64,000 bases of DNA from a virus. The notes under the pieces were generated by a model. That model worked only from the letters and a program-made list of their open reading frames with translations. It made no database searches and was not told the origin of the DNA. Location: the IMG/VR virus record IMGVR_UViG_3300025785_000013, positions 1 to 64,000 of that record; one strand, given 5' to 3'. The translations under genes were made by a program, and so were the position numbers. This document shows, piece by piece, positions 4,837 to 44,740 of this stretch. Every line of letters starts with the position of its first letter. The first letter of the stretch is position 1.

Positions 4837-4882
4837 AGTGCCACTACTGAAATCCCGAAGTCTGGGATAAAGTAGTGGCACT
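4837..4882. other. Intergenic inverted repeat (hairpin)
   Basis: AGTGCCACTACT...AGTAGTGGCACT 12-bp perfect stem plus inner ATCCC/GGGAT; no U-tract. Confidence 0.7.
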
Positions 4883-4902
4883 TGCTATTTCTAGGAGAAC
4901 TT

Positions 4903-7257
4903 ATGTCTTCCGATGGTCAAATTCTTTCGTGGGTCAAGTTCGCTCGTACATTTGAAATCCACAAGGCCGGAGATGCTTCTGGCTTAATTGACTGGTACGA
5001 AGACGGTGCTGATGGCCAGATTGACTGGGGCCAGCCCGGAGACTTTGAGCAATGCGTCGCTATTGCTGGAAAGTATATTGACAACCCCGAAGGCTTTTGC
5101 CAACTGCGTCATATTGGAGCAACCGGGGAGCCAGCAGGCCACGCCGAAAGTGAAATCTCCAAAGCCGATGACGATACCGACTACACGGGCATCATTTCTG
5201 ACCGCAAGGGCGAGCCAGCGAACAAGAAACTCTACAGCCGGGTCAAGGCAGACGCAAAGAAGAAGTTCGATGTCTACCCATCAGCAGTCGCAAACGGCTG
5301 GGTTGTCCAAGAGTACAAGCGTCGTGGTGGAACCTACAGGAAGCCTGTAGCAAAGTCAGAATCCTTTACCCCTCCAAAGGGCGTTCAAGAAGCAGCGAAG
5401 AAGGCTTTGGCGTGGATGAAGGATGGAAAGGCTGGCGACGGATTCACCTCAGTGGGCCGTAAACGAGCCTCAGACCTCGCCAACGGCCACGCTGTGTCTA
5501 TGGACACCCTGAAGCGTATGAAGGCCTATTTTGACCGTCATCAGGGCGACAAGGATTCACCACACTGGGATGAGCCAAGCCCCGGCAAGGTGGCGTGGTA
5601 TGCGTGGGGTGGCGATGCTGGCTACTCGTGGGCCAAGTCGGTTGTGGGCAGTGAAATCCAAAAGGGCGACTTCCTCGGACACATCTTCCACGGAAATCAG
5701 TTCACGGGTGGAGAAGCGTCAGGCCGTGCTGAAAAGTTGTCTTCCAAACTGAGCAAGAAGACCTACATTGACCCGGCATCGGCAGGCCCACTCATCAACG
5801 AAGCCAGAGACATTGCCGACATTCACCAAGACCGTTGGAAGCAAATCGTCTCATCCATCCATAACGTCCCAGAAGGCTTGCAAAGCGACAAGGCTAGGTT
5901 CCTCTCGTCGCTCGCCAGTGACCAGTGGCGGGCCTACTCAGCCAATTCAGCAACGGCAGATGCTATCGAAAAGTACCTGCGGGCTGGGAAAAACTTCAAA
6001 ATTGTTCCAGCATCAGCAGCGAAGGCAGCAGCAGCCAGCGCACAGGCCGACAAGTCGTGGGAACGAAACAAGGACTTCATCAGCACCAACACGGGCCAAC
6101 TCGCTCTCACTAAGGGAGATGACCCCGGCCACCCCTTTCGTGGGAATCAGTGGACAGGTGGCGAAGGCAACACTGCCCCGGACAATAAATCACCACTGGA
6201 AGGCGTGAAGCCAAACCCCACGAGCCAAGACTTGGGAGAACGAGTTCTCACTCCAAAGGGCGATACAAGGGAAGACAGAAGGCAGTTTGCCGTCAAAGTG
6301 CTGAAAAGCCTGAACGACGGGAAGCAACCCGTCATTGACGAGAAGAACTTGGAAACTTTTTTTGAGGGGATGAAGGGTGGAATCGGCCACGAGTTCCTGA
6401 AGTCCGACATTACGGAACTTCGCATTGACGGAACACGGTTGATGGGCAAGGACGGTCTGGGCATCGCACGAGTGGATATGCCTCAGGTGGAAACCGAACA
6501 ACGCCCACAGTTCCTCAGCGACTTGGAGAAGAACAACGGCGTGACGGCAACCAAGGAAGACGTTGACCCAACTACCTTGAAGCCCGTGCAGAAGGAAGTG
6601 TTTGCAGTGAAATCTGCTGCCATCTTCCGGTCTTTCAAGGACAGTGCCATCCCGGACAAGATGAGGATTCTCATTTCCAAAGATGGCTACGTCCTTGACG
6701 GTCACCACACTTGGGCAGCAGCAGTTGGCATCCACTTCCACAACGGAGCCAAGATGCCTGTCTACCGACTGTCGGTGAACCACGGCGAAGCGTTGAAACT
6801 CACCACCCAGTGGGCTAACGCCAACAACGCCGAGAACCAAGGGCAAGGGAAGCCGACGGCAACCAAGAAGGCACTGGACTTCATCACTTCGACGCTCCTT
6901 TCCGAGTACTTGTTCTTCAAGGGGGACTTGCAGGGTCACGTCTTCCGAGGCAACCAACATTCCAAAGGTGGAATCGTTCGATTCGACCCTTACAACGCCC
7001 TCTTTACGGCTCACTGCGCTTCAGGGCATCAGAACACTGTCAGGGTGCCAGAGCAGTGGATTGGTAGAAACGCAGACGGTTCGTTCAACGGCCAGTTCGT
7101 GACCGGTGCGCCGGTGTACGTCTGCTCTACCTGCTCACGCCCCATTGACAACCGTTGGCAACTCGTGAACGGCCAGAAGCCAGTATCACCACCTCCAACC
7201 CCGACTGGTAGCCTTTACCTTGGGTTCGGCCAGTCACCGAAGAACTACGTCAAATAG
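4903..7257 (+). CDS. Head-associated polyprotein: three small phage head domains plus three tagged modules, including a ParB/Srx-like domain and a C-terminal Zn ribbon
   Basis: AGGAG RBS at 4893. Motifs IDWGQPGDFEQCV; YPSAVANGWVVQEYKRRGG; TLKRMKAYFDRH..VAWYAWGGDAG; MPQV..LKPVQ..ILISKDGYVLDGHHTWAA; CASGH..CSTC. Confidence 0.75.
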   Translation: MSSDGQILSWVKFARTFEIHKAGDASGLIDWYEDGADGQIDWGQPGDFEQCVAIAGKYIDNPEGFCQLRHIGATGEPAGHAESEISKADDDTDYTGIISDRKGEPANKKLYSRVKADAKKKFDVYPSAVANGWVVQEYKRRGGTYRKPVAKSESFTPPKGVQEAAKKALAWMKDGKAGDGFTSVGRKRASDLANGHAVSMDTLKRMKAYFDRHQGDKDSPHWDEPSPGKVAWYAWGGDAGYSWAKSVVGSEIQKGDFLGHIFHGNQFTGGEASGRAEKLSSKLSKKTYIDPASAGPLINEARDIADIHQDRWKQIVSSIHNVPEGLQSDKARFLSSLASDQWRAYSANSATADAIEKYLRAGKNFKIVPASAAKAAAASAQADKSWERNKDFISTNTGQLALTKGDDPGHPFRGNQWTGGEGNTAPDNKSPLEGVKPNPTSQDLGERVLTPKGDTREDRRQFAVKVLKSLNDGKQPVIDEKNLETFFEGMKGGIGHEFLKSDITELRIDGTRLMGKDGLGIARVDMPQVETEQRPQFLSDLEKNNGVTATKEDVDPTTLKPVQKEVFAVKSAAIFRSFKDSAIPDKMRILISKDGYVLDGHHTWAAAVGIHFHNGAKMPVYRLSVNHGEALKLTTQWANANNAENQGQGKPTATKKALDFITSTLLSEYLFFKGDLQGHVFRGNQHSKGGIVRFDPYNALFTAHCASGHQNTVRVPEQWIGRNADGSFNGQFVTGAPVYVCSTCSRPIDNRWQLVNGQKPVSPPPTPTGSLYLGFGQSPKNYVK

Positions 7258-7265
7258 GAGCAGCG

Positions 7266-7571
7266 ATGAAGGCTAGAGACATTTTCACCAACCTGAAGAA
7301 AGACGCAACCCCGGCTCCCGAAGCCAAGATGCTCTACTTCTACAACGTTTCGATGCCCGAAAACGGTTGCTACGGGACTGCCACGCTGGAAAACGGCGTT
7401 CTGACTGCCGATGAGGGAACCGCAGCCAATATGGTGCAGGCCATCCGTGACCGTGCAGCCAACGACGGGATGGACAACTTCACGGACAGTGAAATCTACG
7501 ACTACCTGAACGGTTGGAGCAACGGACTGATGTTCGCCACCGACGAGCCTACGACGTGGACAGTTGACTAA
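7266..7571 (+). CDS. Small acidic hypothetical protein
   Basis: AGGAG RBS; stop/start coupled to the next gene. Confidence 0.65.
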   Translation: MKARDIFTNLKKDATPAPEAKMLYFYNVSMPENGCYGTATLENGVLTADEGTAANMVQAIRDRAANDGMDNFTDSEIYDYLNGWSNGLMFATDEPTTWTVD

Positions 7572-8716
7572 TGGACTGGAGAAGCATCACCACAATTCTG
7601 AAAGGTGATGTACCCGGACACGACTTTCACGGTAATCAGTGGGTCAACGAAGCCGGTGGGTTCAACGTCAAGGGCAACAAACCCCGTGGTGGTGGAAAGA
7701 AGCCCAAGGCAGCAGTTCGTCAGCCAGCAGCCCCAAAGAAGCAACCAGCCCCACGCCCTGCCCCTCAGAAGCCAGCAGCGAAGAATCCAAAGCAGCGTGA
7801 CCTGAACAGCGTGTTGTTGTCCATCATCAACAACCACCTCAATGCTCAGAAGCAGCCGACATCAACGCCTGCCGACTACGCCCCATCACCAAAGGAAGCC
7901 AAAGAGCCACCCTTTAAGCCGGGCAAGGGATTCTTACCCTTCACCAGTGAAAAGATACAGAACAACGATGAATCTCTGCATCTCGGTGGAGCGCAGCAAA
8001 TCAAGATGGGCAAAGTCACCTTCGATGACGGCTCCAAGGGTGTAGCGAAGACCATCGGGCAATGGAACGGGATTCCAGCAGAAGAAATGGCGAAAGCCGA
8101 AGTGCTGTCATCCAAAATCGGACAGGCTATCGGTGCGCCTATTCGTGACTGTATCGGCGTTCCCGGCCAAAAGGATGCTGTAATCCAGCCGTGGGTGCAG
8201 GGCGAGACGTGGGCAACTTGCTGCGGGCCGATGGCAATGATGCGGAAAGAGAACTTTAACCCCGGCACTGGCGACCCCGACGGGTACCCGCCCCAATTCC
8301 GTGCAGCCCTTGGTGAAATGCGCCTGTTCGACACAATGGTCGGCAACGGTGACCGACACTGCGAGAACGTGATGGTCACGAACACCAACCCGACTGCCTT
8401 TGAGCCGTTCACAAAGAAAGACGGCTCCCAAACCGTTCGCCTGAAGCAGGGATTGACCATTGCCGACGCAATCACCCCAGATTCCAAACTGGTCGGCATT
8501 GACCATTCGCTGGCGTTCCGTTCCTTGTTTCCACCAAGTTCACGAGAACTCCAAAGCGTTGTGACCCAGTACAGCATTAAGCCGTCCCGATTGAACCAAA
8601 TCAACAAGTCCCTGAAGTCTCTCATCAGTGGTGGAACCCTGAACCAAGAGGAACTTCCAAAAGTCAAGGTAATGCAAGCAACACTGGAGCAGGCTTTCCC
8701 CAAAATCATCAAGTAG
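7571..8716 (+). CDS. Tagged HipA/CtkA/PI3-PI4K-like kinase 1
   Basis: N-terminal tag, Pro/Lys linker, GVAK..E, FDTMVGNGDRHCENVM, LVGIDHSLAF. Confidence 0.8.
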   Translation: MDWRSITTILKGDVPGHDFHGNQWVNEAGGFNVKGNKPRGGGKKPKAAVRQPAAPKKQPAPRPAPQKPAAKNPKQRDLNSVLLSIINNHLNAQKQPTSTPADYAPSPKEAKEPPFKPGKGFLPFTSEKIQNNDESLHLGGAQQIKMGKVTFDDGSKGVAKTIGQWNGIPAEEMAKAEVLSSKIGQAIGAPIRDCIGVPGQKDAVIQPWVQGETWATCCGPMAMMRKENFNPGTGDPDGYPPQFRAALGEMRLFDTMVGNGDRHCENVMVTNTNPTAFEPFTKKDGSQTVRLKQGLTIADAITPDSKLVGIDHSLAFRSLFPPSSRELQSVVTQYSIKPSRLNQINKSLKSLISGGTLNQEELPKVKVMQATLEQAFPKIIK

Positions 8717-8737
8717 TCTTTAAATGGGTGAAATGGT

Positions 8738-9781
8738 ATGAACTTCCGACAAATTCTCGAAATCCTTAAAGGTGACGTTGTAGGTCACGAATTCCACGGC
8801 AATCAGTGGATTAACGGTTCAGGAAAGTTCAATGCAGGTGGTGGAAAGCCCCGACCAGCAGCGAAGCCGAAGCCTGCCGGTCAGCGCAGGGCAGCCGCGC
8901 CAAAGCCAGCACCAGCCCCACGCCGTGTTGCAGCCCCCAAGCCCCCGGCTCCTACCCCACCACGCCCCGAAACACCAAAGCCAACTCCACCGCCAGTAAA
9001 ACTCCCTGAGCCTCAGCAATCCCTGAAGCCAGCCGTCAAGGACTGGAATGAACCCGGCCCCAAGGTTCTGGCCACCAACGAAATTGCTTCCTACGACAAG
9101 AAGTTAGGTTCCAAGGGTGGAGCGCAGAACACTGGACTGCAACTCGTCACGATGAAGGATGGCAGTGCCGGTGTGGTGAAGGGTCTAGCAGAATGGGGAA
9201 AAAATTCCCCAAAACAACTTGCTAAGGCCGAAGTCGCTGCTGGAAAAATCGGCGCAGCGATGGGTATTTCAATTGCCAAGGCTGAGCCGGTTCCGGGTGA
9301 GCCGAAGAAGATTGTGATGCCCCTCATCAAGGGTGAAACAGCATTTGACAGTCGTGGAGCAGACAATGTTTCATCGGAGTGCAACCAGCAGCGAAACGAA
9401 ATGTACTTTTTCGACAAGTTGATTGGCAACGGTGACCGTCATTTTGGAAACTTTATGTACACCAATCTGACCCCCCGCAACTGGGTCACTCAGGATAGCC
9501 AAGTCGTAGCGATTGACCACTCGCTTTGCTTGGGAAACGCCCGTCACGAGCCTTTTCCACCACAGTCCTCCGACCTTGTGCAATTTGCTGTGTTGAAGCG
9601 CATAAACTCCGATAGGTTGACCCAGATGTACACCGGCCTGAAGGATTTGCAGGCAGCCAAGAACAACACCACCTTTGAAAAAGATGCTGTTGATAAGTGC
9701 GTCGGAGTAATGGAAAAGGCGTTCCCCTTTGTCACTGGCAACGACCCAACTGCGAAGAAGATGTACGACAGGATGGTCTAG
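8738..9781 (+). CDS. Tagged HipA/CtkA/PI3-PI4K-like kinase 2
   Basis: N-terminal tag, Pro-rich linker, GVVK..E, FDKLIGNGDRHFGNFM, VVAIDHSLCL. Confidence 0.8.
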   Translation: MNFRQILEILKGDVVGHEFHGNQWINGSGKFNAGGGKPRPAAKPKPAGQRRAAAPKPAPAPRRVAAPKPPAPTPPRPETPKPTPPPVKLPEPQQSLKPAVKDWNEPGPKVLATNEIASYDKKLGSKGGAQNTGLQLVTMKDGSAGVVKGLAEWGKNSPKQLAKAEVAAGKIGAAMGISIAKAEPVPGEPKKIVMPLIKGETAFDSRGADNVSSECNQQRNEMYFFDKLIGNGDRHFGNFMYTNLTPRNWVTQDSQVVAIDHSLCLGNARHEPFPPQSSDLVQFAVLKRINSDRLTQMYTGLKDLQAAKNNTTFEKDAVDKCVGVMEKAFPFVTGNDPTAKKMYDRMV

Positions 9782-12700
9782 TGACGTTCCAACCGAACTT
9801 TGTTAAATTCACCAACACTGACGTAATCGGAACGGAGCCTTTGGAAGGTCGCTTCAAGGGGAACCAGAACGACGGTTTCACCTACGTCCGGTTTGCCGAT
9901 GGCTCTGGTGGCATCATCAAGACGATGAAGGACTGGGTTGGCAACAAGACCGGCAGGCTCTACCCTGCTGAAATCTTGGCAGCGCAGGAGTACTTGGCAT
10001 CGCTGGTGGGCGAAACAATGAACGCTCCGGTTAGGGACTGCCACCTCTACGGCTCTGGTGCCAAGACCGTCATTATGCCGTTCATCGTCGGCCAGACTGG
10101 TGAAGAAGCCGGGCAGACCGAGTTGCCGGAGAACGCTCAGGGAACAGCACTGAAACTGTTCGACTACCTCACCGCCAATGCAGACCGTCGGCCCAAGAAT
10201 TGGATTTCCACCCCCGACGGGCGCATCGTGGGCATTGACCACGCCTTGTGCAACTTCCGGCCCCGTGTTCTAAAGCCTGATTTCGTTAGCGACCTTTGGA
10301 ACAACGGAGTATCACCAGAATCGCTGCTCATTCTCCAGCCGAAGTTGGCAAACCTCGCCATTGACTTCCACCAGATTGGAATGGGCGACAAGCACGAGAC
10401 AATGATGCAGAACTTGTCTCAACTCATCGCGGCTTTCCAAACCTTGGCCAAGTTCGCCACGGTAGTGAAATCCGTTGTGGGGGCAGACCGAATCGTTGTC
10501 AAGGGCGACGAGCCGGGACATCCGTTCAGAGGCAACCAATGGACTGGTGGAAACGCCGAACTTGCTAAGGGCGCAGCCGAATACGCCAAGAGCGTCGGCT
10601 TGCAGCGACCCGACATTGACTACTCCAAGGTGAAAGTCAACCCGTCACGGGCTTTGGAAATCGCCAAGGACTACGTTGCACTGCCGTCTGTGGATGAATC
10701 CACTCGTGCTGCCTACCGAGAGTTCGTCAAGGAAACCCATCAGCAATTTGAGTACCTAACCAAGACCCTTGGGGTCAAGGTCGAAGTAGTCAAGGAAGAC
10801 CCGTACAAGGATGCTGCTGAAATGGCAGCAGACGTTCACGACAACCATCACTTGGCCGTTCTGTCTGCCAGTAGCACTGGTGGCCACCCGTTCGTCACCA
10901 ACCGGGAAATCGAAGAATTCCGTGCTGTCCACGACGCTTTTGGACACGCTGCCACTGGGCGCAACTTCGACAGGAATGGTGAAGAAGCGGCGTGGGCCAG
11001 CCACGCCTCAATGTATGGCCCACTCGCTCGTCAGGCAATGACCACTGCAACTCGTGGTCAAAACTCCGTGATGACCCAACTCGGTGGTGGATTCCCAGAG
11101 CAGAAGGGCGCACTGCTCCCAGAGAAGTGGTCAGACCCATCAACAGCGGGGATGTCCGATGATGTAGTGAAATCTGATGGCGACATCCGGCCCTGCTTCG
11201 CCGGTGGCCGAGCGCAATACGACTATCAGCAGTCGGATGTCCAAAAGGGCGACGTGGATGGTCACCAATTCCACGGGAACCAGTGGGTCACTGTCGGTGG
11301 CAAGTTCAATGCTTCTGGTGGAAAAGCAAAGGCTCCGAAGGCTGCCAAGGCTCCAAAGCCCCGGAAGCCACTCATCCCAGCAGCCAAGCCACCAAAGGCT
11401 GCACAAGTAGCCAAGCCAAAGCCTGTTGCCCCATCACCACCGCCTGCCCCTCAGCCTCAGCCTGCTCCAAAGCCAGAACCCAAGGTGGAAAAGCCCTCGG
11501 CACCGTTGGCCCCGGCCCCGAAGTCGGCCTCAATTGGGCATATCGCTGCAAAGAGCGAGTTTCCACCGGCGACAACTGCGCTCATCAAGAAACTTGTTTC
11601 CGAGTACACCGACAAAGTGGTGTTCAAGAAGGAAGACAACCCCGAACAAAGAAGGGCAACGCTTCAAGAAAACCTCACCAACTTGCTGTTGCAACCCACC
11701 GAATACTTGCGACAGCGTGACATTGCTGTAAAAAACAAGTCCAGCGACCCGTCAAGTACAGCAATTCTCCAAATGCTCGGCTACTCCGAGAGGCCAACTG
11801 TACTCAGTGAAAAGCAGTTTGCCAATACGCCGGGACAGGTTCTTTATTCTGGCCTTACGGACGGCAGCAGTGGCATTATGACGAAGTTGTCGCAAATGTA
11901 CTACGGGGATGTCCCCCGTTATGGTGGTGGCGTGTATGGAGCAGCGTTTTACACCTCTCCGGGCAAGTTGACCCCAGCCGGTTATGCTAATTACAAAGGG
12001 ACAAATGGTTGCATTTTTCGTTGCAAATTAGACAATCCTGCCAATGTTTGGCAATCTGATTACCATCAAAAGGACAGGCCGAGTAACCAGCAACCATATC
12101 TGCATAATAGCGACTTGCTGAGCAATGAAACTGCTGCCTACATTGAAAGGTCGTTTATAAACGAAATTCCCGGCGAAGCACACTTTTCACCAGAACAACA
12201 AAAAACTCTTGCGTCTATAGGAGAGGCATTTCCTAATCTAGAAGACGCATTTGGTGGTTATGAAATTTACAGTACTCTCCCAGCACTTGCGGGTTTCGAC
12301 GCTTACCACGACACTACGAACAACTACACAATGGTGTTGAATCGCAGTTCGATGATTCTGCCTGAAAACACCACAGTTTCCGTAAATATGAAAGAATCAT
12401 ACTTTGGAGAAGGGGGTGCCTTACCCAATCCAATTGCTGGAAACCGAGATGGGTTGAAGGATGTCCCTGTCCCGTTGCCCGACAAAGTTGAGAAAGGCGA
12501 CCTCGTTGGACACCTGTTCCACGGGAACCAGTACACGAATGGCATCCAAGTAGCAACGTTCTTGGCTTCAGCCCTGCATCGCAGGGCAGCGAAGAACGAA
12601 CCGGGCATCACCAAAGAGATTGCCGAGACTGCTACCGAAGTAGGGGCGCAGCGCATTAAACCAGACAAGGTGCTGAAAAGCGCAGATTCGCTGGCTCGCA

Positions 12701-15700
12701 AGATTGCCCTTGACGCACGAGACTTCGTTGGCCCCAAGTCCGAAGCCGAACAGCAGGCATCGCTGGCGGTCAAGGATTCAATTCGCTACACCTTGGCGTT
12801 GGATGAGAAGAAGTTCAGTGACGGAGTGAAATCGGCTTTGGCAGACCTCCGTAAGGAAGGCTATGAAACCATTGCCATTCGCAACTACTTCAACACCGAC
12901 CCTCACAACTCCTACAAAGGCATCAACGGCCTGTTCCGCGACCCCATCAAGAACCAAATGTTTGAGGTGCAGTTCCACACCCCGGAATCAGCAGCAATGG
13001 CCACGAAGACCCACGGAATCTACGAGCGCATCCGTGACCTGAATCCAAAAGACCCTGCCTACATAAAGGGTCAGGCCAAGATGGTGAAAATGTGGGCCAA
13101 AGTTTCCATTCCTGCTGGCGTGGAAGACATCGGCACCCGGAGTATCAAGGCTTCTGCGTGGACGTACTACGAGTATTCCACCACCGAAGGAAAGCCGTTC
13201 GCCTACTACCGATACGACGGAACTGACGCAGAGGCTTACGTTGAGGGACAGTGGATTCCAGCATCGGCGTTCTTGGAGAACTGGATTGAGGGCAACCCAC
13301 TTCTGACTGAACTTGACGGCCCACCAGAGGAAGCGATTTCCAAAGGTGACGTTCCCGGCCACCAGTTTCACGGTAATCAGTGGTTGACCGTCGGGGGTGG
13401 CTTCAACACCCGTGGTGGAAAGCCGAGTTCGGCAGCCAAGGCCCCGGCGAAGGCACCAAAGGCACCCAAAGCAAAGGCTCCGAAGGCTCCTAGGGTTCCA
13501 AAAGCCCCTAAGCCTGTCGCATCACCACCAGAGCCGAAGCCAGAACCAAAGCCAGAGCCAGAGCCAACCCCACCAAAGGCCGAGACACCAGCACCCGAAC
13601 TAGAGTTCAAAAGCGAGTTGTCACCAAAGGAGACTGCTGAAATTCGCCAGTACGTCGAAAACGCTTCAAAGGACATCCCAATCTCAGGCCAACTTGGAGA
13701 CAAGTCGCAAGATGACGCTCGTAGGGCGTTGTTCGCCAAGAATTTGACAATGGTGTTGTGCAACCCCGGCGAATACAACAGGCAATTCAAAATTGCAAAA
13801 GAGCAACGAAGCAACGACCCTATGAACGCAGCAATTCTTCAGATGCTTGGATACGGAGCAAAGCCAAGGGTTGTCAGCGAAGAAGAATTCGCCAAGGTAC
13901 CAACTCCGTGCCTGTTCTCCGGCATCAAGACCGGCTCAACTTCAGTCGGAACCAAGATGTCCCAGTTGTACTACGGGAAGGTTCCTCGCTACGGTGGTGG
14001 TTTTTACGGAGCAGCGTTCTACACCTCCCCTGAGAAGTACACCCCGGTGGGGTACACGAGAATTGGTAGAGGTGGAGACAGTTGCATTTTTAGAGCAAAG
14101 TTGGAAAGCACATCGAACACTTGGACTTATGACGGCTTGGCCTACGAGAGGCCAGAAGGTATTTCACTGCTGCCCTTGATGAAACAGGGCATCACCCCAG
14201 ACCAAGCGTCGGCTTACGGCAAAATTGACGCAGTAATGACCGACTACTCAATGAGGATGAGTGCCGTTCCAGCACTTGCTGGCTTTGATGCCCTGACCGT
14301 ACCGCAAGTCGGTATTAAAAACGATGACTACACGATGCTGTTAAACCGTGGTGCTTTGGTTCTCCCGAAGAACATCACCATTGGTAGTGACAAATCCTTT
14401 AACGAGTTTAACTTTGATGAAAAGGGCGCAGTAGGCAACGAACTGACCAACGTGCCGGTTCAACCATACGAAAAGCCCGTACAAAAGGGCGACGTTGAAG
14501 GCCATCCCTTTCACGGAAACCAGTGGACAGGTGGAGAGGGTGGCAGTGAAATCTCCCAAGCCGAGAGCAAGCCGGGGGACAACGTTTCCGTGTACCTCAA
14601 CAGTCGCAAGGTCGCAGAAGCGGTGGAAAAGGGTCTAACAGGCCCCAAGTGGGATATGAAGGTTCGTGGTGACTGCAAAGCAGCAATCGCCAAGGACATT
14701 GCTTCTCGCCTCGGCCCCGAATGGGATGAAGCGTTAGGCAGCAGGCAGCCAGAGGAACGGGCAGCAGCCGTCAGCAAACTCGTCTCGGAATGGGCCAACA
14801 CGTCGAACGACACTTCTCCACTGTCATTGGCAATGCAGCAATTAGCAGCCAAGGAGTTCGGTCTTGCTGGACATTTTGACTGGGATTACAAAGAAGCAGC
14901 AAGGCAATTCCTCGGCTACAGCAGTAGGGGGAAACTTGATTCAGCACAACAAGACCAAATTACAAATTTAGCAACAGCAACACAGGCACAAGTTGACAAA
15001 CTTGTCAGTGAAAACGGTGACTTCTACAAGGCTTTCCTCCGGGCGCAGTACAACGCAACGCAGGATTACTTCAAGGCTGCTGGAATCAAGGAAGTTTCCG
15101 TGTACCGAGGGATGACTTTCCGTTCTCAAAGTTCTCCACCGGATTGGACAAAAGGTTTTAAAACAAATTCAGAAGTGCCACTTCGCCCGCTTTCTTCGTT
15201 TGCCTATTCAGCAACCGAAGCAAGTCATTTTGGCGAAGTTATGATTTCTGGCACCGTCCCAGTAGAGCGAGTTCTGTCGTGTGCTAGAACCGGCGTGGGT
15301 TGTCTAGACGAAGACGAAATTGTTGTAATGGCTGGCCCCGGCAAATGGCAAGTCAATGGTCAAAACGATTTTCGCAATGCCGATTTGCAAGGTGCCAAAA
15401 TTAAAGACATTGCAGAGTACGCTAATTTTTCGGGTGCCAACCTCCAAGGCGCAAAGTTTGAAACCCCCTCACAAAACGCAAATTTTTCAGGGGCAAATCT
15501 TACAAACGCTGACTTTTCAACAGACCGCACTCCTTTTTTGAATGGCAACGGCTCCAACGGAAACCTTAACCACGTTTGGTATGGCGCAAACTTCAGCAAT
15601 GCCAACCTCACTGGCGCAAACTTGTCGGGTTCATTTTTTTCAGCAAGCGATTTCATTAAAGCCAATTTTTCTGGGTGCAACTTGTCAAAGGCCGAGATTG

Positions 15701-15909
15701 GCAACTCACGCCTTTCGGAAGCCAATCTTGAAGGTGCAAACCTTGAAGATGTAAACTTTAGAGATGTAAGCCTTAAAGGTGCAAATCTTGCTAACGCAAA
15801 CCTGTCAGGAGCAGAATTTGCAGCCGTGCAGTCTGACAAAGACACCGTGCTTCCAAGCGGATACGAATTCAGCCAGTACGGAATCCGTCAAGTCAGTAGA
15901 AACGCGTAA
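9781..15909 (+). CDS. About 2040-aa polyvalent effector polyprotein: kinase 3, HDxFGH domain, 2x ART-like, RelA/SpoT-like plus putative immunity, R-S-E ART, pentapeptide repeats
   Basis: Start reassigned to GTG 9781, overlapping the upstream TAG. Five tag copies delimit the modules. Motifs DRRPKN/IDH; FRAVHDAFGH; YGGGxYGAAFY; KSADSLARKI/DSIRYT/YKGIN/FEVQFHT; VYRG/LSSF/EDE; ANLSG repeats. Confidence 0.85.
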   Translation: MTFQPNFVKFTNTDVIGTEPLEGRFKGNQNDGFTYVRFADGSGGIIKTMKDWVGNKTGRLYPAEILAAQEYLASLVGETMNAPVRDCHLYGSGAKTVIMPFIVGQTGEEAGQTELPENAQGTALKLFDYLTANADRRPKNWISTPDGRIVGIDHALCNFRPRVLKPDFVSDLWNNGVSPESLLILQPKLANLAIDFHQIGMGDKHETMMQNLSQLIAAFQTLAKFATVVKSVVGADRIVVKGDEPGHPFRGNQWTGGNAELAKGAAEYAKSVGLQRPDIDYSKVKVNPSRALEIAKDYVALPSVDESTRAAYREFVKETHQQFEYLTKTLGVKVEVVKEDPYKDAAEMAADVHDNHHLAVLSASSTGGHPFVTNREIEEFRAVHDAFGHAATGRNFDRNGEEAAWASHASMYGPLARQAMTTATRGQNSVMTQLGGGFPEQKGALLPEKWSDPSTAGMSDDVVKSDGDIRPCFAGGRAQYDYQQSDVQKGDVDGHQFHGNQWVTVGGKFNASGGKAKAPKAAKAPKPRKPLIPAAKPPKAAQVAKPKPVAPSPPPAPQPQPAPKPEPKVEKPSAPLAPAPKSASIGHIAAKSEFPPATTALIKKLVSEYTDKVVFKKEDNPEQRRATLQENLTNLLLQPTEYLRQRDIAVKNKSSDPSSTAILQMLGYSERPTVLSEKQFANTPGQVLYSGLTDGSSGIMTKLSQMYYGDVPRYGGGVYGAAFYTSPGKLTPAGYANYKGTNGCIFRCKLDNPANVWQSDYHQKDRPSNQQPYLHNSDLLSNETAAYIERSFINEIPGEAHFSPEQQKTLASIGEAFPNLEDAFGGYEIYSTLPALAGFDAYHDTTNNYTMVLNRSSMILPENTTVSVNMKESYFGEGGALPNPIAGNRDGLKDVPVPLPDKVEKGDLVGHLFHGNQYTNGIQVATFLASALHRRAAKNEPGITKEIAETATEVGAQRIKPDKVLKSADSLARKIALDARDFVGPKSEAEQQASLAVKDSIRYTLALDEKKFSDGVKSALADLRKEGYETIAIRNYFNTDPHNSYKGINGLFRDPIKNQMFEVQFHTPESAAMATKTHGIYERIRDLNPKDPAYIKGQAKMVKMWAKVSIPAGVEDIGTRSIKASAWTYYEYSTTEGKPFAYYRYDGTDAEAYVEGQWIPASAFLENWIEGNPLLTELDGPPEEAISKGDVPGHQFHGNQWLTVGGGFNTRGGKPSSAAKAPAKAPKAPKAKAPKAPRVPKAPKPVASPPEPKPEPKPEPEPTPPKAETPAPELEFKSELSPKETAEIRQYVENASKDIPISGQLGDKSQDDARRALFAKNLTMVLCNPGEYNRQFKIAKEQRSNDPMNAAILQMLGYGAKPRVVSEEEFAKVPTPCLFSGIKTGSTSVGTKMSQLYYGKVPRYGGGFYGAAFYTSPEKYTPVGYTRIGRGGDSCIFRAKLESTSNTWTYDGLAYERPEGISLLPLMKQGITPDQASAYGKIDAVMTDYSMRMSAVPALAGFDALTVPQVGIKNDDYTMLLNRGALVLPKNITIGSDKSFNEFNFDEKGAVGNELTNVPVQPYEKPVQKGDVEGHPFHGNQWTGGEGGSEISQAESKPGDNVSVYLNSRKVAEAVEKGLTGPKWDMKVRGDCKAAIAKDIASRLGPEWDEALGSRQPEERAAAVSKLVSEWANTSNDTSPLSLAMQQLAAKEFGLAGHFDWDYKEAARQFLGYSSRGKLDSAQQDQITNLATATQAQVDKLVSENGDFYKAFLRAQYNATQDYFKAAGIKEVSVYRGMTFRSQSSPPDWTKGFKTNSEVPLRPLSSFAYSATEASHFGEVMISGTVPVERVLSCARTGVGCLDEDEIVVMAGPGKWQVNGQNDFRNADLQGAKIKDIAEYANFSGANLQGAKFETPSQNANFSGANLTNADFSTDRTPFLNGNGSNGNLNHVWYGANFSNANLTGANLSGSFFSASDFIKANFSGCNLSKAEIGNSRLSEANLEGANLEDVNFRDVSLKGANLANANLSGAEFAAVQSDKDTVLPSGYEFSQYGIRQVSRNA
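15367..15840 (+). repeat. Pentapeptide repeats (A[ND][LF]xx)
   Basis: ADLQG, ANFSG, ANLQG, ANLTN, ANLTG, ANLSG, ANLEG and similar. Confidence 0.9.
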
Positions 15910-24255: not shown

Positions 24256-25017
24256 ATGGCTTGGGAACAAAATCCATACACCGTCAAGGTTTCGCTGGTT
24301 GCCGATTCGTCGCTTTCGACGCAGGTTAACTCGGCTGGAACCCCGGTCTTCACCCCGCAGTTCCGCTTCGTTTCCCTTGGTTCGACCAGTGCGACCATCA
24401 CTGCGAACGTGACCGCTGGTAGCAACTCGGTGTCGGTGACCGGTACCACGGCGACCCCAGCAGCATTTGCTGGAATCGTCCCCGGTGCGCTCGTCACCGC
24501 GCCAGCCGGTCTTGCTGGTGCAACGGTTGTCGGCATCAACATTGCTGCTGGCTCGTTCACCATCTCGCAGGCTGCTCCCGGTACCACCGCAAGCGCTTCG
24601 ATTACCCTCACGGTTCAGGGTCAGCCTGCTAGCCAACCTGTTGCCACGGCGATTGTTGCCGGACAGACTGCTCCCGGCACGACTGCCGTGAACGCTGGTG
24701 GAACCGGCCCCAAGGCCATCGGTATTCTTCAGAACCAGCCGGTGTACCGCACTGCTGCTGGCGGCAACCTTGAAGCCCTCGCTGAGGCTGAGGTCACCCT
24801 TTCGGGTATCTCCAAGGTTGTTTGTGGTCTTGCTGTGACCGTCGGTCAGGCTCTGACGATTGACACCTCTGGCGCAGTTGTCCCTGTCACCTACCCAACG
24901 ACTGGTTCTTACGCCAGCCCTACCTCGTGGGTTTACGGTACTGCGCTTTCCAGCGGTGCTCAGGGTGACCTCATTGCGATGGCTGTCACGGCTTCGGCCC
25001 CGTCTCGCAACGCATAG
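24256..25017 (+). CDS. Head decoration/cement protein with inserted beta module
   Basis: QFRFV...AIGILQNQP...AEVTLSGISKV..AVTVGQAL; between scaffold and MCP. Confidence 0.7.
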   Translation: MAWEQNPYTVKVSLVADSSLSTQVNSAGTPVFTPQFRFVSLGSTSATITANVTAGSNSVSVTGTTATPAAFAGIVPGALVTAPAGLAGATVVGINIAAGSFTISQAAPGTTASASITLTVQGQPASQPVATAIVAGQTAPGTTAVNAGGTGPKAIGILQNQPVYRTAAGGNLEALAEAEVTLSGISKVVCGLAVTVGQALTIDTSGAVVPVTYPTTGSYASPTSWVYGTALSSGAQGDLIAMAVTASAPSRNA

Positions 25018-25038: not shown

Positions 25039-26118
25039 ATGCCCCAACCAAACGTTCAAAATGTTCACATTGACGCGATTCTGACCAACATTTCAGTCGC
25101 GTACTTGCAGAACACCGACAACTTCATCGCTGACAAGGTTTTCCCTGTCATCCCGGTGGACAAGAAGTCCAACCTGTACTTCAAGTACACGAAGGATGAC
25201 TGGTTCCGTGACGAGGCTCAGCGTCGTGCTGATGGCACCGTCTCCGCTGGTTCTGGCTACGGCCTCACCACGGACACCTATATGGCCGACGTGTGGGCTT
25301 TCCACAAGGACATTGGTGACCAGACCCGTGCCAACTCCGACAACCCCCTCAACCCCGATATGGAGGCGACGCAGTTCATCACCCAGCGTCTTCTTCTCCG
25401 TCGTGAGGTTCAGTGGGCCAGCGACTACTTCCAAGCCGGTGTCTGGGCCTTGGGTGTCAATGGTCAGCCCGCTACCGGTTCTACCGCGGCTGTTAACGCT
25501 GGTACTGCCGTGTGGCAGTGGGATGACTACGTTGGTGCGACGGGTACCTCGTCGTACACCAACGGTGGAACCTACTACTCCAACCCGATTGCGGACGTGG
25601 AACTCGCCAAGGCTGCCATCTTGCAGACCACGGGCTACGAGCCGAACACCCTCGTGCTTGGCTACCGTGTCTTCCAAGTGCTGAAGAACCACCCGCTTCT
25701 CGTTGACCGCTACAAGTTCACTCAGGCCGGTGCCATCGTCACCGAAGACCTGCTCGCCCAACTCTTTGGAGTTGACCGAGTGCTGGTCGCCAAGGCTGTC
25801 GTGAACACGGCGAACGAGACGGCGAGCGACCTGCTCGGTGTTGGTGTTGCTTCCAGCAACTACAAGTTCACCGTCGGCAACAACGCCCTGCTTGCCTACA
25901 CCGCCCCGAACCCCGGTGTGATGACCCCCTCCGCTGGCTACACGTTTATGTGGACTGGCGTGTCGGGTGGCCTCGGTACCACGGTTGGTGTGAGCCGCTT
26001 CCGTATGGAGGAACTGAAGGCAGACCGAGTTGAAGGTGAAATCGCCTTTGACAACAAGGTTGTCGCAGCCGACCTCGGCTACTTCTTCAGCAACATCATC
26101 GGTGGCACGGCCATCTAG
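25039..26118 (+). CDS. Major capsid protein (HK97 fold, lambda gpE-like group)
   Basis: AAGGA RBS; VHIDAILTNISVAY..FIADKVFPVIPV..PNTLVLG..DLGYFF; strongly biased codons. Confidence 0.92.
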   Translation: MPQPNVQNVHIDAILTNISVAYLQNTDNFIADKVFPVIPVDKKSNLYFKYTKDDWFRDEAQRRADGTVSAGSGYGLTTDTYMADVWAFHKDIGDQTRANSDNPLNPDMEATQFITQRLLLRREVQWASDYFQAGVWALGVNGQPATGSTAAVNAGTAVWQWDDYVGATGTSSYTNGGTYYSNPIADVELAKAAILQTTGYEPNTLVLGYRVFQVLKNHPLLVDRYKFTQAGAIVTEDLLAQLFGVDRVLVAKAVVNTANETASDLLGVGVASSNYKFTVGNNALLAYTAPNPGVMTPSAGYTFMWTGVSGGLGTTVGVSRFRMEELKADRVEGEIAFDNKVVAADLGYFFSNIIGGTAI

Positions 26119-39248: not shown

Positions 39249-39464
39249 ATGGCTAAGGCTGCACCGAAGTCCTACCAAGTCACCGACAAGTCGCCCCTTA
39301 CCTACAACGGTAAGCGGGCTATGCCCAGTGACGTGGTGACGGATATCCCCGGCGAGGACATTTCGTGGCTTCTTGAAGGTGGCTACATCGTTCCTGTCGA
39401 ATCAGCACCTGAGCCAGACGTGGATGCTAGCGAGCCTGCCCCTGCGACTACCGAGGCCAACTAA
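39249..39464 (+). CDS. Small tail-associated hypothetical protein
   Basis: Coupled to the major tail gene; WLLEGGYI. Confidence 0.6.
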   Translation: MAKAAPKSYQVTDKSPLTYNGKRAMPSDVVTDIPGEDISWLLEGGYIVPVESAPEPDVDASEPAPATTEAN

Positions 39465-40465
39465 TGCCGATTTTCCAGCACGGTAAGAATACTCGCACCA
39501 TCCTCACGGTTCCAAATTCGACGGCAGGCACGTTCACTGGCACGGCCACCAACAGCAGTTATTACTTGACTGGCGTAGTCACCTCGTTCGGCTTGACGGT
39601 TGGAATGGTCATCACGTCTCCCTCAGACCTGTCGTGGTCGGCAGTCATCACCTCAATCGGTTCCAACTCCGTAATGCTTAACGCCACGCCGAGTTCGGGT
39701 GTCTACAGCGCAACGGCCCCACAGGTTTTCACTGTGCTTCTGCCCCAAGTTTCGGCTGGAGTGACCGGAATTGGCTACGACCTCTCCCAATTTCTGAACG
39801 ATGCCAGCATCAGCCAGATGATTGACGCTACTGAAACCACCACGTTCCAAACCGGTGGCAGTAAGTCCTACATTCAAGGGTTGAAGGAAGGCACCGTCAG
39901 TCTGTCCGGCTTCTATGACGGAACACCAGCCGGTATTGACCCAATTATGTACAGGACTGCCAACCTCGCAGCCAACAAGTCCGTTCTTATCTTCCTTGAT
40001 GGTGGAAACAACGCTACCCCGGCAGTTTGCTATATGGCCAACGGTGTCCAAACTAAGTACGACTTGAAGTCGCCAGTTGCCGGTGTTGTTAGTGCTGATA
40101 TGGAACTTCAGGCCGATGGTGGCGTGTGGCGTGGATACGGCCAGTACATCACTTCGGGAACCACCAGCCTCATTGCAGCAGCCACGGTCAACAACAACTT
40201 TTCCACCTCAAAGGGTGGGCTGTTGATTATGGGCGTTTCGTCGGCCAACGGCAACTCCGGTTCTTCGTTGCTGGAATTCCAAACCTCGCCAACCGGCTCA
40301 GTGTGGACAACGGTGGAAACGCTGACTGTTGACGCTTCAACCTCTTACGGGATTGGTGCAGTCGCCATCAACCTCGTTGGAACCATCCCGCAGTACACCC
40401 GCCTGTACTACTCCGTCGGAAGCGGAGTGACAGCCAACATCTACTACGGGTTCGCCCGCTTCTAG
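39464..40465 (+). CDS. Major tail protein-like 1 (extra C-terminal domain)
   Basis: MPIFQHGKN..ETTTF..KSYIQGLK..SGFYD..YDLKSPVAGVV. Confidence 0.75.
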   Translation: MPIFQHGKNTRTILTVPNSTAGTFTGTATNSSYYLTGVVTSFGLTVGMVITSPSDLSWSAVITSIGSNSVMLNATPSSGVYSATAPQVFTVLLPQVSAGVTGIGYDLSQFLNDASISQMIDATETTTFQTGGSKSYIQGLKEGTVSLSGFYDGTPAGIDPIMYRTANLAANKSVLIFLDGGNNATPAVCYMANGVQTKYDLKSPVAGVVSADMELQADGGVWRGYGQYITSGTTSLIAAATVNNNFSTSKGGLLIMGVSSANGNSGSSLLEFQTSPTGSVWTTVETLTVDASTSYGIGAVAINLVGTIPQYTRLYYSVGSGVTANIYYGFARF

Positions 40466-41818: not shown

Positions 41819-44740
41819 ATGACGATGGACACCGGTGGCGACAACCTAATCGCCAATGCCATCCGTATCGCTATCCTTGGTGACAACAAGCAATTCAAGA
41901 GCGTTGTCGGTGACAGCGTTGAATCAGCAAAGGCCGCAGCAGACGGCATCAAAGGTGCTTTTGCCGACGTAGGTGGGTTCCTTTCCAAGGCAGTTGGCTT
42001 CTTCGGTGTCGCTGCGATGGTTGACAAATCAGCAGAAGCCGCTTCCAAACTGACCGGTCAACAAAATCTTCAGGCAACGATTCTGAAGAACCAGTTGTCC
42101 CCAGAACTGGTGAAGCAGTTCGGCATCACTAAGGGAATCGAGGGTAATTACTCCAAGATTCTTGCCAATGCTGCGATGATTCAGTCAACTTCAACCGGTA
42201 TGAGCGTCACCCAGATAACGCAGGCCCAGACGATGTTCCTTACCAACAAGGAACTGGCCAATATGTTTGCCACCGGTCAGAAGATTACTTCTGGGCCACT
42301 GACCGGTATGAACGTTCAGTTGGAAAACGCAATGAACGCTGCTGCAAACTTGGCAGGAACGATGGGTGGCAACGTCTACGCCGCGTCTCGTCTGCTGAAC
42401 CGAGTATTGGAAGACCCGGCAAAGCGTGTGACAGCACTTCGCCGTTCTTCGTTGCAGTTGAGTACCGACCAAATCAACTCCATTAAGCAGATTGAGGCTT
42501 CACAGGGCAAAATCGCTGCCCGATACGCCACTTTGCAATTGGTGAACTCAGAACTCGGTGGTGCTGCTCAGGCAGTGGCCAACCCGATGGAGAAGTTGCA
42601 GAACGACTTCCAAAACCTCACCATCGAACTTGGTGAGGTTTTTCTCCCGTTAATTAACGCATTTTCTGATGTAATTGCTAATTTGGTTGGTTCAATTGCT
42701 CCGATGATGCAGCAATTGGCAAACGTTATTAAGCCAACAATGATGGCTATTGGAACTGCAATCGGTGATGTTTTTACGATTGTTGAACCAATCTTGAACA
42801 CCATTACCACAAGAATATTGCCAGACCTTATGATGGTTCTTCAACCAATTATTGACGCATTTGGTAAAATGGCAAACGCTTTTGCAAATTCTGCTGCTCT
42901 AAAAGACTTCTTGACCATCATAGGAAAGTTGTTTGACAACTTGTCTTTGAAACTTCTCAAATTGCTTCTTCCGTTATTCACCAATTTGCAAAAGACATTT
43001 GACAAAATGTCCAAAAACGGTCAATTGGACAAGTTGTTCAAAAATCTTGCCAACGTGTTCGCCACACTGCTGCCGATTCTTCCCCAACTCATCCAGTTCG
43101 CCATCACACTGGTGGAAGCGTTGTTCCCCCTGTTTCTCCAGTTCTTCCCCATCCTCATTCAATTTATGCAGTGGGGTGCTGATTTTCTTGCGTGGTGCAT
43201 CAAGGTTGTCCCTGCCGTAGCACAAGTTGTCGAAAAAATCCTAAAGTGGGCAGACGGGCTTCCCATCATCAAGCAACTGTCGCACCACACTGGCGTTCTG
43301 AAGGACATCATCCTTGGCTTGGTCGCAGTCTGGTTCACCAGAGGGATGTTCCTCGCTCCGTTGAAACTCATCATCGGCACTATTGACAAGATGCGGGACA
43401 GCATCAAGTTGGCCCAGAAGGGCTTCAAGGACTTGAAGGGAGGTGGCTTTGGTAAGGGCCTGAGGCAAATCCTCGGCCTTGGTGGGGCTGCTGAAAAAGA
43501 CGCACAAGTTGTTGCTGTAGAAGCGAACACGGTTGCCCTCGGTGAAAACACGGCTGCCCTTGGTGGCAACGCATTAAGCAACGAAGTTGGCGGTGGCGGT
43601 GGCGCAGGCAAAGACGCAAAGGAAGCCGAAGGATTCTTCAAGAAGTTTATGAAGTTCGCCAAGAACCCAGTGAAAACTTTCAAGGAGATGGCCGGAGGCG
43701 CACTGGGCAAGTTGAAGAACTTGTTTGGTCGTGGTGCTGGAAAAACTGCTGCTGGTGATGCAGCATCCACTGGCGAGGCTGCTGCTGGTGAAGCAGCATC
43801 CACTGGCGAGGCTGCTGCTGGTGATGCAGCATCCACTGGCGAGGCTGCCCTTGCTAGTGGTGGAGCAGAGGCTGCTGCTGCCACTGGTGGTGAAGCACTT
43901 GCCGGTGCTGGTGTTGCTGCTGCTGGCACCGGTGCAGCCGAAGGTGGAATCTTGGCTGCCGGTCTTGCCAGTGCGCCAGAAACCCTTGGTGTTGGTTTGG
44001 CCGTTGCCGCAGTTGCTGCTGGCGTAGTCGCTTTTCACAAGCAGATTGGTCACGCCATTAGCAAGACGGCAAAGTTCCTGTACCACGGCGCACAAGATGT
44101 AGCAAAATGGGGTTCCAAGGAGTTTGGACACGTCGAAAACGGAGTGAAAAACGTCGCCAAGTTTGTCGGTCACGTCGGACACGCTGCTATGGGTGTGGTG
44201 ACTGGTGGGCTTCACGCTGCTGGAACCATTGCTCACGGAATCGGTTCGGCCATTGGAGGCTTCTTTGGTGGCCTGTTCGGTGGTGGTGGAAGTTCCAGTT
44301 CTTCTTCCACCACCACTGGAAGTAGCAATGCGATGATTGGCTGGCTCATCAGGATTGCCCACAACACCTCAGCCACGGCCATTCTGCTGGACAAGGGTGG
44401 CAAGCCTCAGGAAATCGCCCGAATGATGAAGCACCCTGCGATGAAGAAGATGGTTGCTGCCCACTCCCACGAAATGATGAGCCAAGCAATAGCCAAGATG
44501 TTCGGTGCTGGCTCGTTGGTTGGGTCACTGTTCAGCAACGGAAGTCCAGCAAATGCTGGAAAGGCACTGGCCGGGTCAACTCGCACATCCGGGCCAACGC
44601 ACAACGTCACTATTTCACCAAACGCCTTTGTCGTGAACGTGACCGGTGGGGCAGACCCCAAGGTTGCCAAGCAAGTCGAAGCGGCAATCCAAAAGCACTT
44701 CAAGGAAATGCTCCGAACTACCAACGCAATGAGGGCATAG
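41819..44740 (+). CDS. Tape measure protein
   Basis: 973 aa, helical, amphipathic periodicity; follows the chaperone. Confidence 0.9.
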   Translation: MTMDTGGDNLIANAIRIAILGDNKQFKSVVGDSVESAKAAADGIKGAFADVGGFLSKAVGFFGVAAMVDKSAEAASKLTGQQNLQATILKNQLSPELVKQFGITKGIEGNYSKILANAAMIQSTSTGMSVTQITQAQTMFLTNKELANMFATGQKITSGPLTGMNVQLENAMNAAANLAGTMGGNVYAASRLLNRVLEDPAKRVTALRRSSLQLSTDQINSIKQIEASQGKIAARYATLQLVNSELGGAAQAVANPMEKLQNDFQNLTIELGEVFLPLINAFSDVIANLVGSIAPMMQQLANVIKPTMMAIGTAIGDVFTIVEPILNTITTRILPDLMMVLQPIIDAFGKMANAFANSAALKDFLTIIGKLFDNLSLKLLKLLLPLFTNLQKTFDKMSKNGQLDKLFKNLANVFATLLPILPQLIQFAITLVEALFPLFLQFFPILIQFMQWGADFLAWCIKVVPAVAQVVEKILKWADGLPIIKQLSHHTGVLKDIILGLVAVWFTRGMFLAPLKLIIGTIDKMRDSIKLAQKGFKDLKGGGFGKGLRQILGLGGAAEKDAQVVAVEANTVALGENTAALGGNALSNEVGGGGGAGKDAKEAEGFFKKFMKFAKNPVKTFKEMAGGALGKLKNLFGRGAGKTAAGDAASTGEAAAGEAASTGEAAAGDAASTGEAALASGGAEAAAATGGEALAGAGVAAAGTGAAEGGILAAGLASAPETLGVGLAVAAVAAGVVAFHKQIGHAISKTAKFLYHGAQDVAKWGSKEFGHVENGVKNVAKFVGHVGHAAMGVVTGGLHAAGTIAHGIGSAIGGFFGGLFGGGGSSSSSSTTTGSSNAMIGWLIRIAHNTSATAILLDKGGKPQEIARMMKHPAMKKMVAAHSHEMMSQAIAKMFGAGSLVGSLFSNGSPANAGKALAGSTRTSGPTHNVTISPNAFVVNVTGGADPKVAKQVEAAIQKHFKEMLRTTNAMRA
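43748..43846 (+). repeat. 3 x 33-bp tandem repeat in TMP (AAG[DE]AASTGEA)
   Basis: GCTGCTGGTGAWGCAGCATCCACTGGCGAGGCT x3. Confidence 0.95.

Follow-up and report, generated by a model that had tools for sequence, protein, structure and literature searches.

An alarmone-synthetase domain fused in frame to a probable immunity domain in a polyvalent protein of an uncultured siphophage

The closest described counterparts of the locus reported here are the Apk2-IapK(BcTis1)-Aph1 MuF toxins of temperate phages, in which a phage synthetase belonging to the RSH type (RelA/SpoT homolog) is followed by an acidic, aromatic-rich partner of about 70 residues (PMC10083569, PMC12226406). IapK of Mannheimia, Pasteurella and Streptococcus binds and neutralizes its cognate toxin (PMC12226406), and the role of the phage alarmone-synthetase toxins in infection is still open (PMC10083569). 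SaEAS of Streptomyces albidoflavus, a related enzyme, carries a signal peptide, and export is its way of avoiding self-poisoning (PMC12691689). CapRelSJ46 of E. coli carries an RSH toxin and a C-terminal neutralizer in one chain, the neutralizer docking on the active site; it is a bacterial anti-phage defense protein with a capsid protein as its trigger and tRNA as its target, and its fused form shows that neutralization in cis works in the RSH enzyme family (PMC9712102). Polyvalent phage proteins combine many unrelated enzyme domains in a single polypeptide, and RelA/SpoT domains are known among them (Iyer et al. 2017, PMC5512222). Here we describe a stretch of viral DNA of 64,000 nucleotides (the window; positions 1 to 64,000 of IMG/VR record IMGVR_UViG_3300025785_000013), in which a RelA/SpoT-type synthetase domain and a 64-residue acidic domain, probably an immunity domain, form one uninterrupted module inside a protein of 2070 residues. 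The features that make up and enclose this module are listed below; the sequence-only reading mentioned in the list is an earlier interpretation of the same DNA.

9697-15909, + strand: polyvalent 'beads on a string' protein of 2070 residues, start codon uncertain; the open frame that holds the synthetase-unit module
12493-12534, + strand: header peptide KGDLVGHLFHGNQY before the synthetase module
12535-13149, + strand: RelA/SpoT-type (SaEAS/Apk2-like) alarmone synthetase domain, predicted; the core aligned to PDB 8VX3 is 12571-13131
13141-13152, + strand: junction S-I-K-A at the end of the synthetase domain; the stop position of stand-alone homologs, and the putative cleavage site of the sequence-only reading
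13150-13341, + strand: A unit of 64 residues, acidic (isoelectric point, pI, 4.05) and rich in aromatic residues; an IapK-like, immunity-type domain fused in frame
13342-13383, + strand: header peptide KGDVPGHQFHGNQW, which opens the following Pro/Lys-linker module

The module agrees with the Apk2-IapK-Aph1 systems in having a phage RSH synthetase, here 28-37% identical to theirs, followed by a small acidic and aromatic partner. However, its toxin is without a MuF domain, lies internally in the polyvalent protein and is headed by a KGDxxGHxFxGNQ peptide; its partner is fused in frame and not encoded by a separate gene; and no Aph1-type hydrolase was found in the 83-kb record from which the window is taken. 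SaEAS has common synthetase motifs with the window domain and is its closest solved relative by sequence, but the window domain lacks a signal peptide and has an immunity-type domain fused to it instead. The architecture of CapRelSJ46 fits that of the window module, in which an RSH-type domain is joined in one chain to a C-terminal, putatively neutralizing domain. In contrast to this bacterial protein, the window protein is the phage's own and lies outside any bacterial defense locus, and the unit profile gave no match to a CapRel chain, with its C-terminal pseudo-zinc-finger antitoxin domain, among the PDB sequences. The polyvalent proteins share the assembly of many unrelated enzyme domains in one phage protein, although the string 'GNQ' of the header peptide is absent from the available text of that paper (PMC5512222).

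The four synthetase motifs named in the sequence-only reading (KSADSLARKI, KDSIRYT, RNYF..SYKGIN and FEVQFHTPES) are all present in the translation of 12535-13341. The sole phmmer match among all PDB sequences was 8vx3_A ('SaSAS', E 6.2e-16), with residues 37-223 of P0001 aligned to residues 21-202 of the 207 in the chain. Entry 8VX3 is SaEAS of S. albidoflavus in the form of a D121A/L83M mutant (PMC12691689), and the Asp of KDSIRYT in the window aligns with an Ala that we take to be the D121A position. The synthetase stretch also matches PHROG 7625, annotated as 'head morphogenesis' (E 3.2e-17), and phrog_2859 (E 6.4e-11). A tblastn search returned 128 phage records, with a Mannheimia phage MuF protein at the top (37.5% identity, E 8e-20); the best matches, at 28-37.5% identity, come from Mannheimia, Pasteurella and Streptococcus phages and are head proteins of the MuF type, and none of the 128 records covers at least 80% of the 269-residue query. 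Across 14 homologs 22 columns are invariant, including K..S..RK, D..RYT, Y.G.N and E.QFHT, and all of them are kept in the window. The synthetase domain is basic, with a pI of 9.45.

The Pfam model RelA_SpoT (PF04607) remains under its gathering score on this domain (12.3 bits where 27 are required, E 0.011), and a scan of the 2070-residue protein at E<=0.1 gave no match to it, which we attribute to a synthetase family too divergent for the Pfam model. MuF (PF04233) is absent from the 83-kb record at E<=1 and from the 2070-residue protein. Thus, the assignment to Apk2-like toxins of MuF phage proteins made in the sequence-only reading holds as far as an RSH-type synthetase related to the Apk2 and SaEAS toxins is concerned but fails for the MuF context, and since there is no MuF domain the synthetase is not an Apk2 in the strict sense. 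On sequence grounds we class the domain as a synthetase of the RSH type, near to SaEAS and Apk2; the candidate products are (p)ppApp, (p)ppGpp or both.

The same reading had drawn the boundary of the small domain correctly: the translation runs through GTRSIK, of which the K is encoded by 13147-13149, into ASAWTYYEY and continues for 64 residues (13150-13341) up to the header peptide at 13342. Synthetase and unit are joined in frame without a linker, and no ATG, GTG or TTG codon occurs in frame where the unit begins. The identical in-frame junction is repeated in two further assemblies of nearly the same phage (L003 and L004), and an assembly error as the source of the fusion was ruled out on this ground. 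The closest homolog of the whole segment, P0004 (244 residues, 47% identity), consists of a header peptide and a synthetase and ends in S-V-K-R, at the very position of S-I-K-A in the window. Stand-alone synthetases stop at S-V-K-R or S-V-K-K (P0004, L015, L016 and L027), and stand-alone units begin with M-A-W-T, which aligns with A-S-A-W-T of the window.

The A unit exists in a single copy within the 83-kb record. A search with its single sequence among 1.84 billion representative proteins gave 11 matches at E<=0.001, comprising the window's own protein, three long proteins and seven proteins of 66-210 residues; in these seven the unit begins at residue 1-3, except for P0022, where it begins at residue 21. 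The three long proteins, including the repeat protein P0016, were taken as spurious. A profile search added three more small proteins to the family, and a metagenome scan started from the unit yielded 3 relatives among 59 pattern matches. The pattern of the family comprises W-T-Y-Y, Y-R-Y-D-G, an invariant W and G-D-P-x-L-D, and the window retains all family-invariant residues of both the synthetase and the unit. Pfam returned nothing significant for the unit and seven relatives. When the profile of the unit was compared with PDB sequences, a Lyn SH3 domain (E 0.52) appeared in one run and six matches, all to fucose-lectin-type chains or unnamed proteins with E values of at least 0.065, in another; all of these were treated as chance, and the CapRel chains among the PDB sequences gave no match. 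The A unit is a conserved domain family without a Pfam or PDB match. Stand-alone proteins of 62-94 residues that bear no header peptide exist, and we have therefore ruled out that the unit is a mere leader of the header peptide that follows it.

The position of the unit in related phages was surveyed in 80 IMG/VR stretches, the best of 235 in which a relative of the synthetase is encoded. A jackhmmer search from the window unit, run on 8,700 six-frame open reading frames (ORFs) of all retrieved loci together with the retrieved proteins, converged at 47 sequences. Ten of the 80 loci are duplicates, as judged by an identical synthetase ORF, and three are cut at the end of the synthetase; because the loci were picked for holding a synthetase, the position of the unit is informative and its mere presence is not. 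The unit was found on the + strand in 31 of the 80 loci: fused to the synthetase in three, in the next frame in 25 and at a distance of 267-1857 nucleotides in three. Two more loci have it on the - strand (L047, 5945-6091; L074, 2124-2297), where a unit-like gene lies on the strand opposite to the synthetase gene and 1-2 kb away from it in high-GC phage contigs; that these two are false positives was considered and rejected, as both show the family pattern on inspection. In eight further loci of the 80 the next ORF is matched by the IapK profile.

A gene of 244 codons for header peptide plus synthetase ends at 7787 in L015, and the next gene, from 7790, encodes the unit, then a variant header peptide, then a His-rich domain; L027 is arranged in the same way. 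In L016 a polyprotein of 760 residues ends in the synthetase at 9998, and an untagged, stand-alone unit gene of 75 residues starts at 10001. The start codon of the unit is located 2 nucleotides past the stop codon of the synthetase in L015 and L027, and 3 nucleotides past it in L016. L024, a diverged phage whose synthetase shares only 42% identity with that of the window, again shows an in-frame fusion of synthetase and A unit, an independent one, with a header peptide coming next. The unit is held by eight of the nine lineages that bear header peptides, and the ninth (L002) ends a few hundred bases past the synthetase gene. In L055, L063, L073, L075, L081, L090, L076 and L079 the synthetase is followed by small ORFs of 70-85 residues that fall outside both the unit and the IapK profiles and may represent further immunity families.

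A second family of small acidic domains, here called B, has about 75 residues and the pattern LYFY..G.GTAT...W[ST]NG. The window contains one example:

7266-7571, + strand: B unit gene, stand-alone and untagged, 101 residues

Others are found in L001 (1085-1330), L025 (4670-4945) and L028 (4655-4942). In L001 and L002 it forms a fusion with the preceding synthetase, and in proteins of 138-185 residues (P0020, P0022 and P0023) it is fused behind A. It stands between synthetase and A in L025 and L028, where the order is synthetase, a B gene of 91-92 residues and a unit gene (stop-to-stop frame of 79-91 codons). B may be a second partner of the toxin. An A-B protein of 143 residues is encoded at 482-913 of L100, a 3.9-kb contig from a lake metagenome, behind a module that by eye resembles the HipA/PI3K-like kinases of the window and not a synthetase.

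For comparison with IapK we used the small genes that follow the MuF toxins of Mannheimia, Pasteurella and Streptococcus phages. Members of the unit family have 64-76 residues, a pI of 4.0-4.8 and 9-12 aromatic residues; the corresponding values of IapK are 69-72 residues, a pI of 4.3-4.7 and 12 aromatic residues. With expanded profiles, hhalign gave 58.9% (P 9.3e-5) over 60 columns that span both families end to end, and another expanded-profile run gave 29.8% (P 5.6e-4) over 56 columns. In the latter run none of 200 column-shuffled controls reached the observed score (21.0, against a mean of 8.5, a standard deviation of 1.9 and a maximum of 19.2), and the reversed profile and the B family scored 8.6 and 12.4, respectively. 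A chain of phmmer matches, passing through ORFs downstream of other synthetases, links the window unit to the IapK proteins of Streptococcus and Mannheimia, its weakest link being 5.7e-6 (Z=160). P0118 was tried as a natural fusion of IapK and toxin and rejected, being a chimeric fragment in which the N-terminus of IapK is joined to the C-terminus of the toxin. We regard remote homology between the unit and IapK as somewhat more probable than its absence, and the position of the unit gives good support to a role equivalent to that of IapK, as the small partner whose coding sequence comes right behind that of the toxin.

The best explanation of these observations, to which we would assign a probability of roughly 60%, is that the 64-residue unit is an immunity domain fused in cis to an alarmone-synthetase toxin. 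The small immunity-type partner already proposed from the letters alone is supported by the adjoining gene in relatives, by the size, acidity and aromatic content of the unit, and by its weak profile similarity to IapK. A motif-intact RelA/SpoT-type nucleotide pyrophosphokinase, as predicted, and an immunity-type domain would then constitute one module of the polyvalent protein. The ancestral arrangement would have been that of most relatives, namely two adjacent genes, toxin then immunity, from which the loss of a stop codon and a short spacer, here and in one other diverged phage, would have produced a single chain with a fixed 1:1 ratio of the two parts. Tis1 blocks the Tas1-type synthetase by binding. 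By analogy with IapK/Tis1-like proteins, the acidic unit would bind the basic synthetase and occlude its nucleotide site, which would hold the enzyme inactive during the build-up of the polyprotein in the infected cell and spare the ATP needed for phage assembly. The gene position and the analogy with MuF and T4 cargo suggest that the protein may be packaged in the capsid. Candidate events that could lift the block are a cut at the junction, separation of the two parts on unfolding at ejection, and degradation of the unit in the recipient cell. A further step is doubtful: that the toxin would be covalently locked to its antidote and the lock would open only outside the cytoplasm of the producing cell, through a cut during head maturation or through unfolding at ejection that leaves the antidote behind. 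If true, this would amount to a built-in safety catch, with which the virus carries an ATP-draining weapon without a separate immunity gene.

Several points weigh against the unit being an immunity domain. The comparison of narrow profiles of the unit and IapK was negative (0.67% and 0.8%). The jackhmmer search from the unit excludes IapK (best P0109, E 0.0083), and the search from IapK fails to reach the unit family. The intermediates of the expanded profiles were picked from ORFs downstream of synthetases, a choice that could bias the profile in favor of IapK. No solved immunity or antitoxin chain is matched by the profile of the unit or by that of IapK; since IapK, too, is without a solved relative by this measure, the missing match between the unit and Tis1 says little. 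Some A-B proteins are not next to the synthetase: one is encoded 1.9 kb downstream of it in L001, and another behind a kinase-like module in L100. The zero-length linker may or may not let the unit reach the active site in cis. With cuts confined to the header peptides, toxin and inhibitor would remain together in the mature product, and a further step would be needed for release. Finally, the record contains no Aph1-type hydrolase.

The alternative that survives best, though we consider it unlikely, is that the unit is not an inhibitor at all and that it is an accessory module of the synthetase, such as a helper in folding or loading, an adaptor for target binding, or a regulator, which merely travels along with the enzyme, as B would do likewise. 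The variety of combinations found (synthetase-A, synthetase-B, A-B, A alone, and A followed by a tag and another domain) speaks for such a module, as do the A-B proteins that are not next to the synthetase and the weakness of the homology to IapK. On the other hand, the gene right after a polymorphic toxin domain is an immunity gene (PMC10083569, PMC3482391), the unit matches IapK in size, charge and aromatic content, and its similarity to the IapK profile exceeds that of the shuffled controls.

The window represents bases 1-64000 of a linear record of 83,477 bases, which is estimated to be 69% complete. Its source is an uncultured siphophage, with PHROG matches to scaffold, major head, major tail and tape measure genes:

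24256-25017: scaffolding protein (PHROG)
25039-26118: major head protein (PHROG)
39464-40465: major tail protein (PHROG)
41819-44740: tape measure protein (PHROG)

A regular-expression search of the window revealed 16 copies of GHxFxGNQ-type peptides, every one of them on the + strand, in the region from base 19 to base 16203. Fourteen of the 16 have the form KGDxxGHxFxGNQ[WYFH], and five KGDxxGHxFxGNQ peptides lie within the 2070-residue frame at 9697-15909. These peptides head unrelated modules of several genes upstream of the head genes. A search of the literature for the header-peptide motif and DUF5872 brought up nothing relevant. In phage T4, the internal proteins and Alt carry a capsid targeting sequence that is cut by the prohead protease. 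The repeated short peptide that heads cargo-like modules near head genes in the window resembles this arrangement; however, the header peptide is unrelated in sequence to that of T4.

The sequence-only reading had gone further and placed a cleavage site at S-I-K|A, with arming by the prohead protease: the chain would be packaged by means of its header peptides, it would then, once in the capsid, be cut by the protease at S-I-K|A as well as at the header peptides, and the tagged toxin would be armed while the untagged inhibitor is shed, as a safety catch coupled to maturation. Several features agree with such a course. In the two phages with a fusion (the window and L024) the unit is placed after the synthetase and before the following header peptide, stand-alone unit genes carry no header peptide (L016, L025 and L028), the unit occupies the leader position N-terminal to a header peptide in L015 and L027, and the gene array is upstream of the scaffold and major head genes. 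However, the Pfam models S78, ClpP and S49 all remain below their cut-offs, both in the record of the window and in the four to five related records scanned, all of them 16-74% complete; a match to S49 inside the polyprotein (10738-10851, 12 bits) is likewise below the cut-off and was treated as noise. PHROG named no protease, portal or terminase among 20 ORFs of the window and 10 ORFs of at least 120 residues in the last 19 kb of the record. The junction S-I-K|A is without the hydrophobic-x-K-G-D context of the 14 KGD-type tags, all of which have a hydrophobic residue at -3 that is missing here. S[IV]K[KR] is, furthermore, the natural C-terminus of stand-alone synthetases, so its conservation needs no cleavage site, and it is not obvious how a 7-kDa domain, folded and bound to its partner, would get out of a closed capsid. 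With no protease above the cut-off in these incomplete records, a junction unlike the tags and a motif that is the natural end of the synthetase, the cleavage site and the protease-dependent arming found no support, and we consider this course of events quite unlikely.

It is improbable that the fusion is a permanently self-neutralized or non-functional relic of a lost stop codon, or that the synthetase is non-toxic in the host: a small indel and the loss of a stop codon would be enough to create the fusion, and the record has neither a separate copy of the unit nor a hydrolase, but the fusion exists in three assemblies of the phage and separately in a phage with a 42%-identical synthetase, and catalytic and family-invariant residues are kept in both parts.

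The phage alarmone-synthetase toxins known so far have separate small immunity genes, whereas here a toxin and its probable immunity domain are one chain. The available portions of PMC5512222 and PMC3482391 describe no fused form of an immunity domain behind a RelA/SpoT toxin. In the accessible IapK literature 'fused' refers to two-hybrid constructs, and the lists of SaEAS-like and Apk1-like sequences of PMC12691689 may hold fused forms. The presence of a toxin and its probable inhibitor in one chain, within a cargo-like multi-enzyme protein, raises the question of when and how the inhibitor is removed, and the answer would reveal whether the next host is a site of action of such toxins. The fused module is also a compact two-part construct, and the A unit, as a previously unnamed family of small domains, together with the second family, B, marks a clade of toxins in uncultured freshwater-type phages.

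The whole ORF of the polyvalent protein gave no megablast match among phage records. Weak Pfam matches to PI3_PI4_kinase and HipA_2 occur in two tagged genes of the window region 7571-10460, and the start of the polyprotein contains, by eye, an apparent third copy of this kinase-like module. At the other end of the polyprotein (window 15100-15909) there are strong matches to pentapeptide repeats (Pfam, E 2e-28), preceded by a weak match to a DRAT-like ADP-ribosyltransferase (E 0.0027, below the cut-off). An ORF of 791 residues (window 4882-7257) has an N-terminal domain that corresponds to phrog_2859 (E 4.7e-74) and is common to the synthetase-B proteins of L001 (2-1333) and L002 (9566-10975). 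In the window gene this domain is followed by other modules in place of synthetase-B, and the B unit is a separate gene after it. A shared N-terminal domain that is combined with differing modules in this way points to a shuffling of modules among the window phage and the phages represented by L001 and L002.

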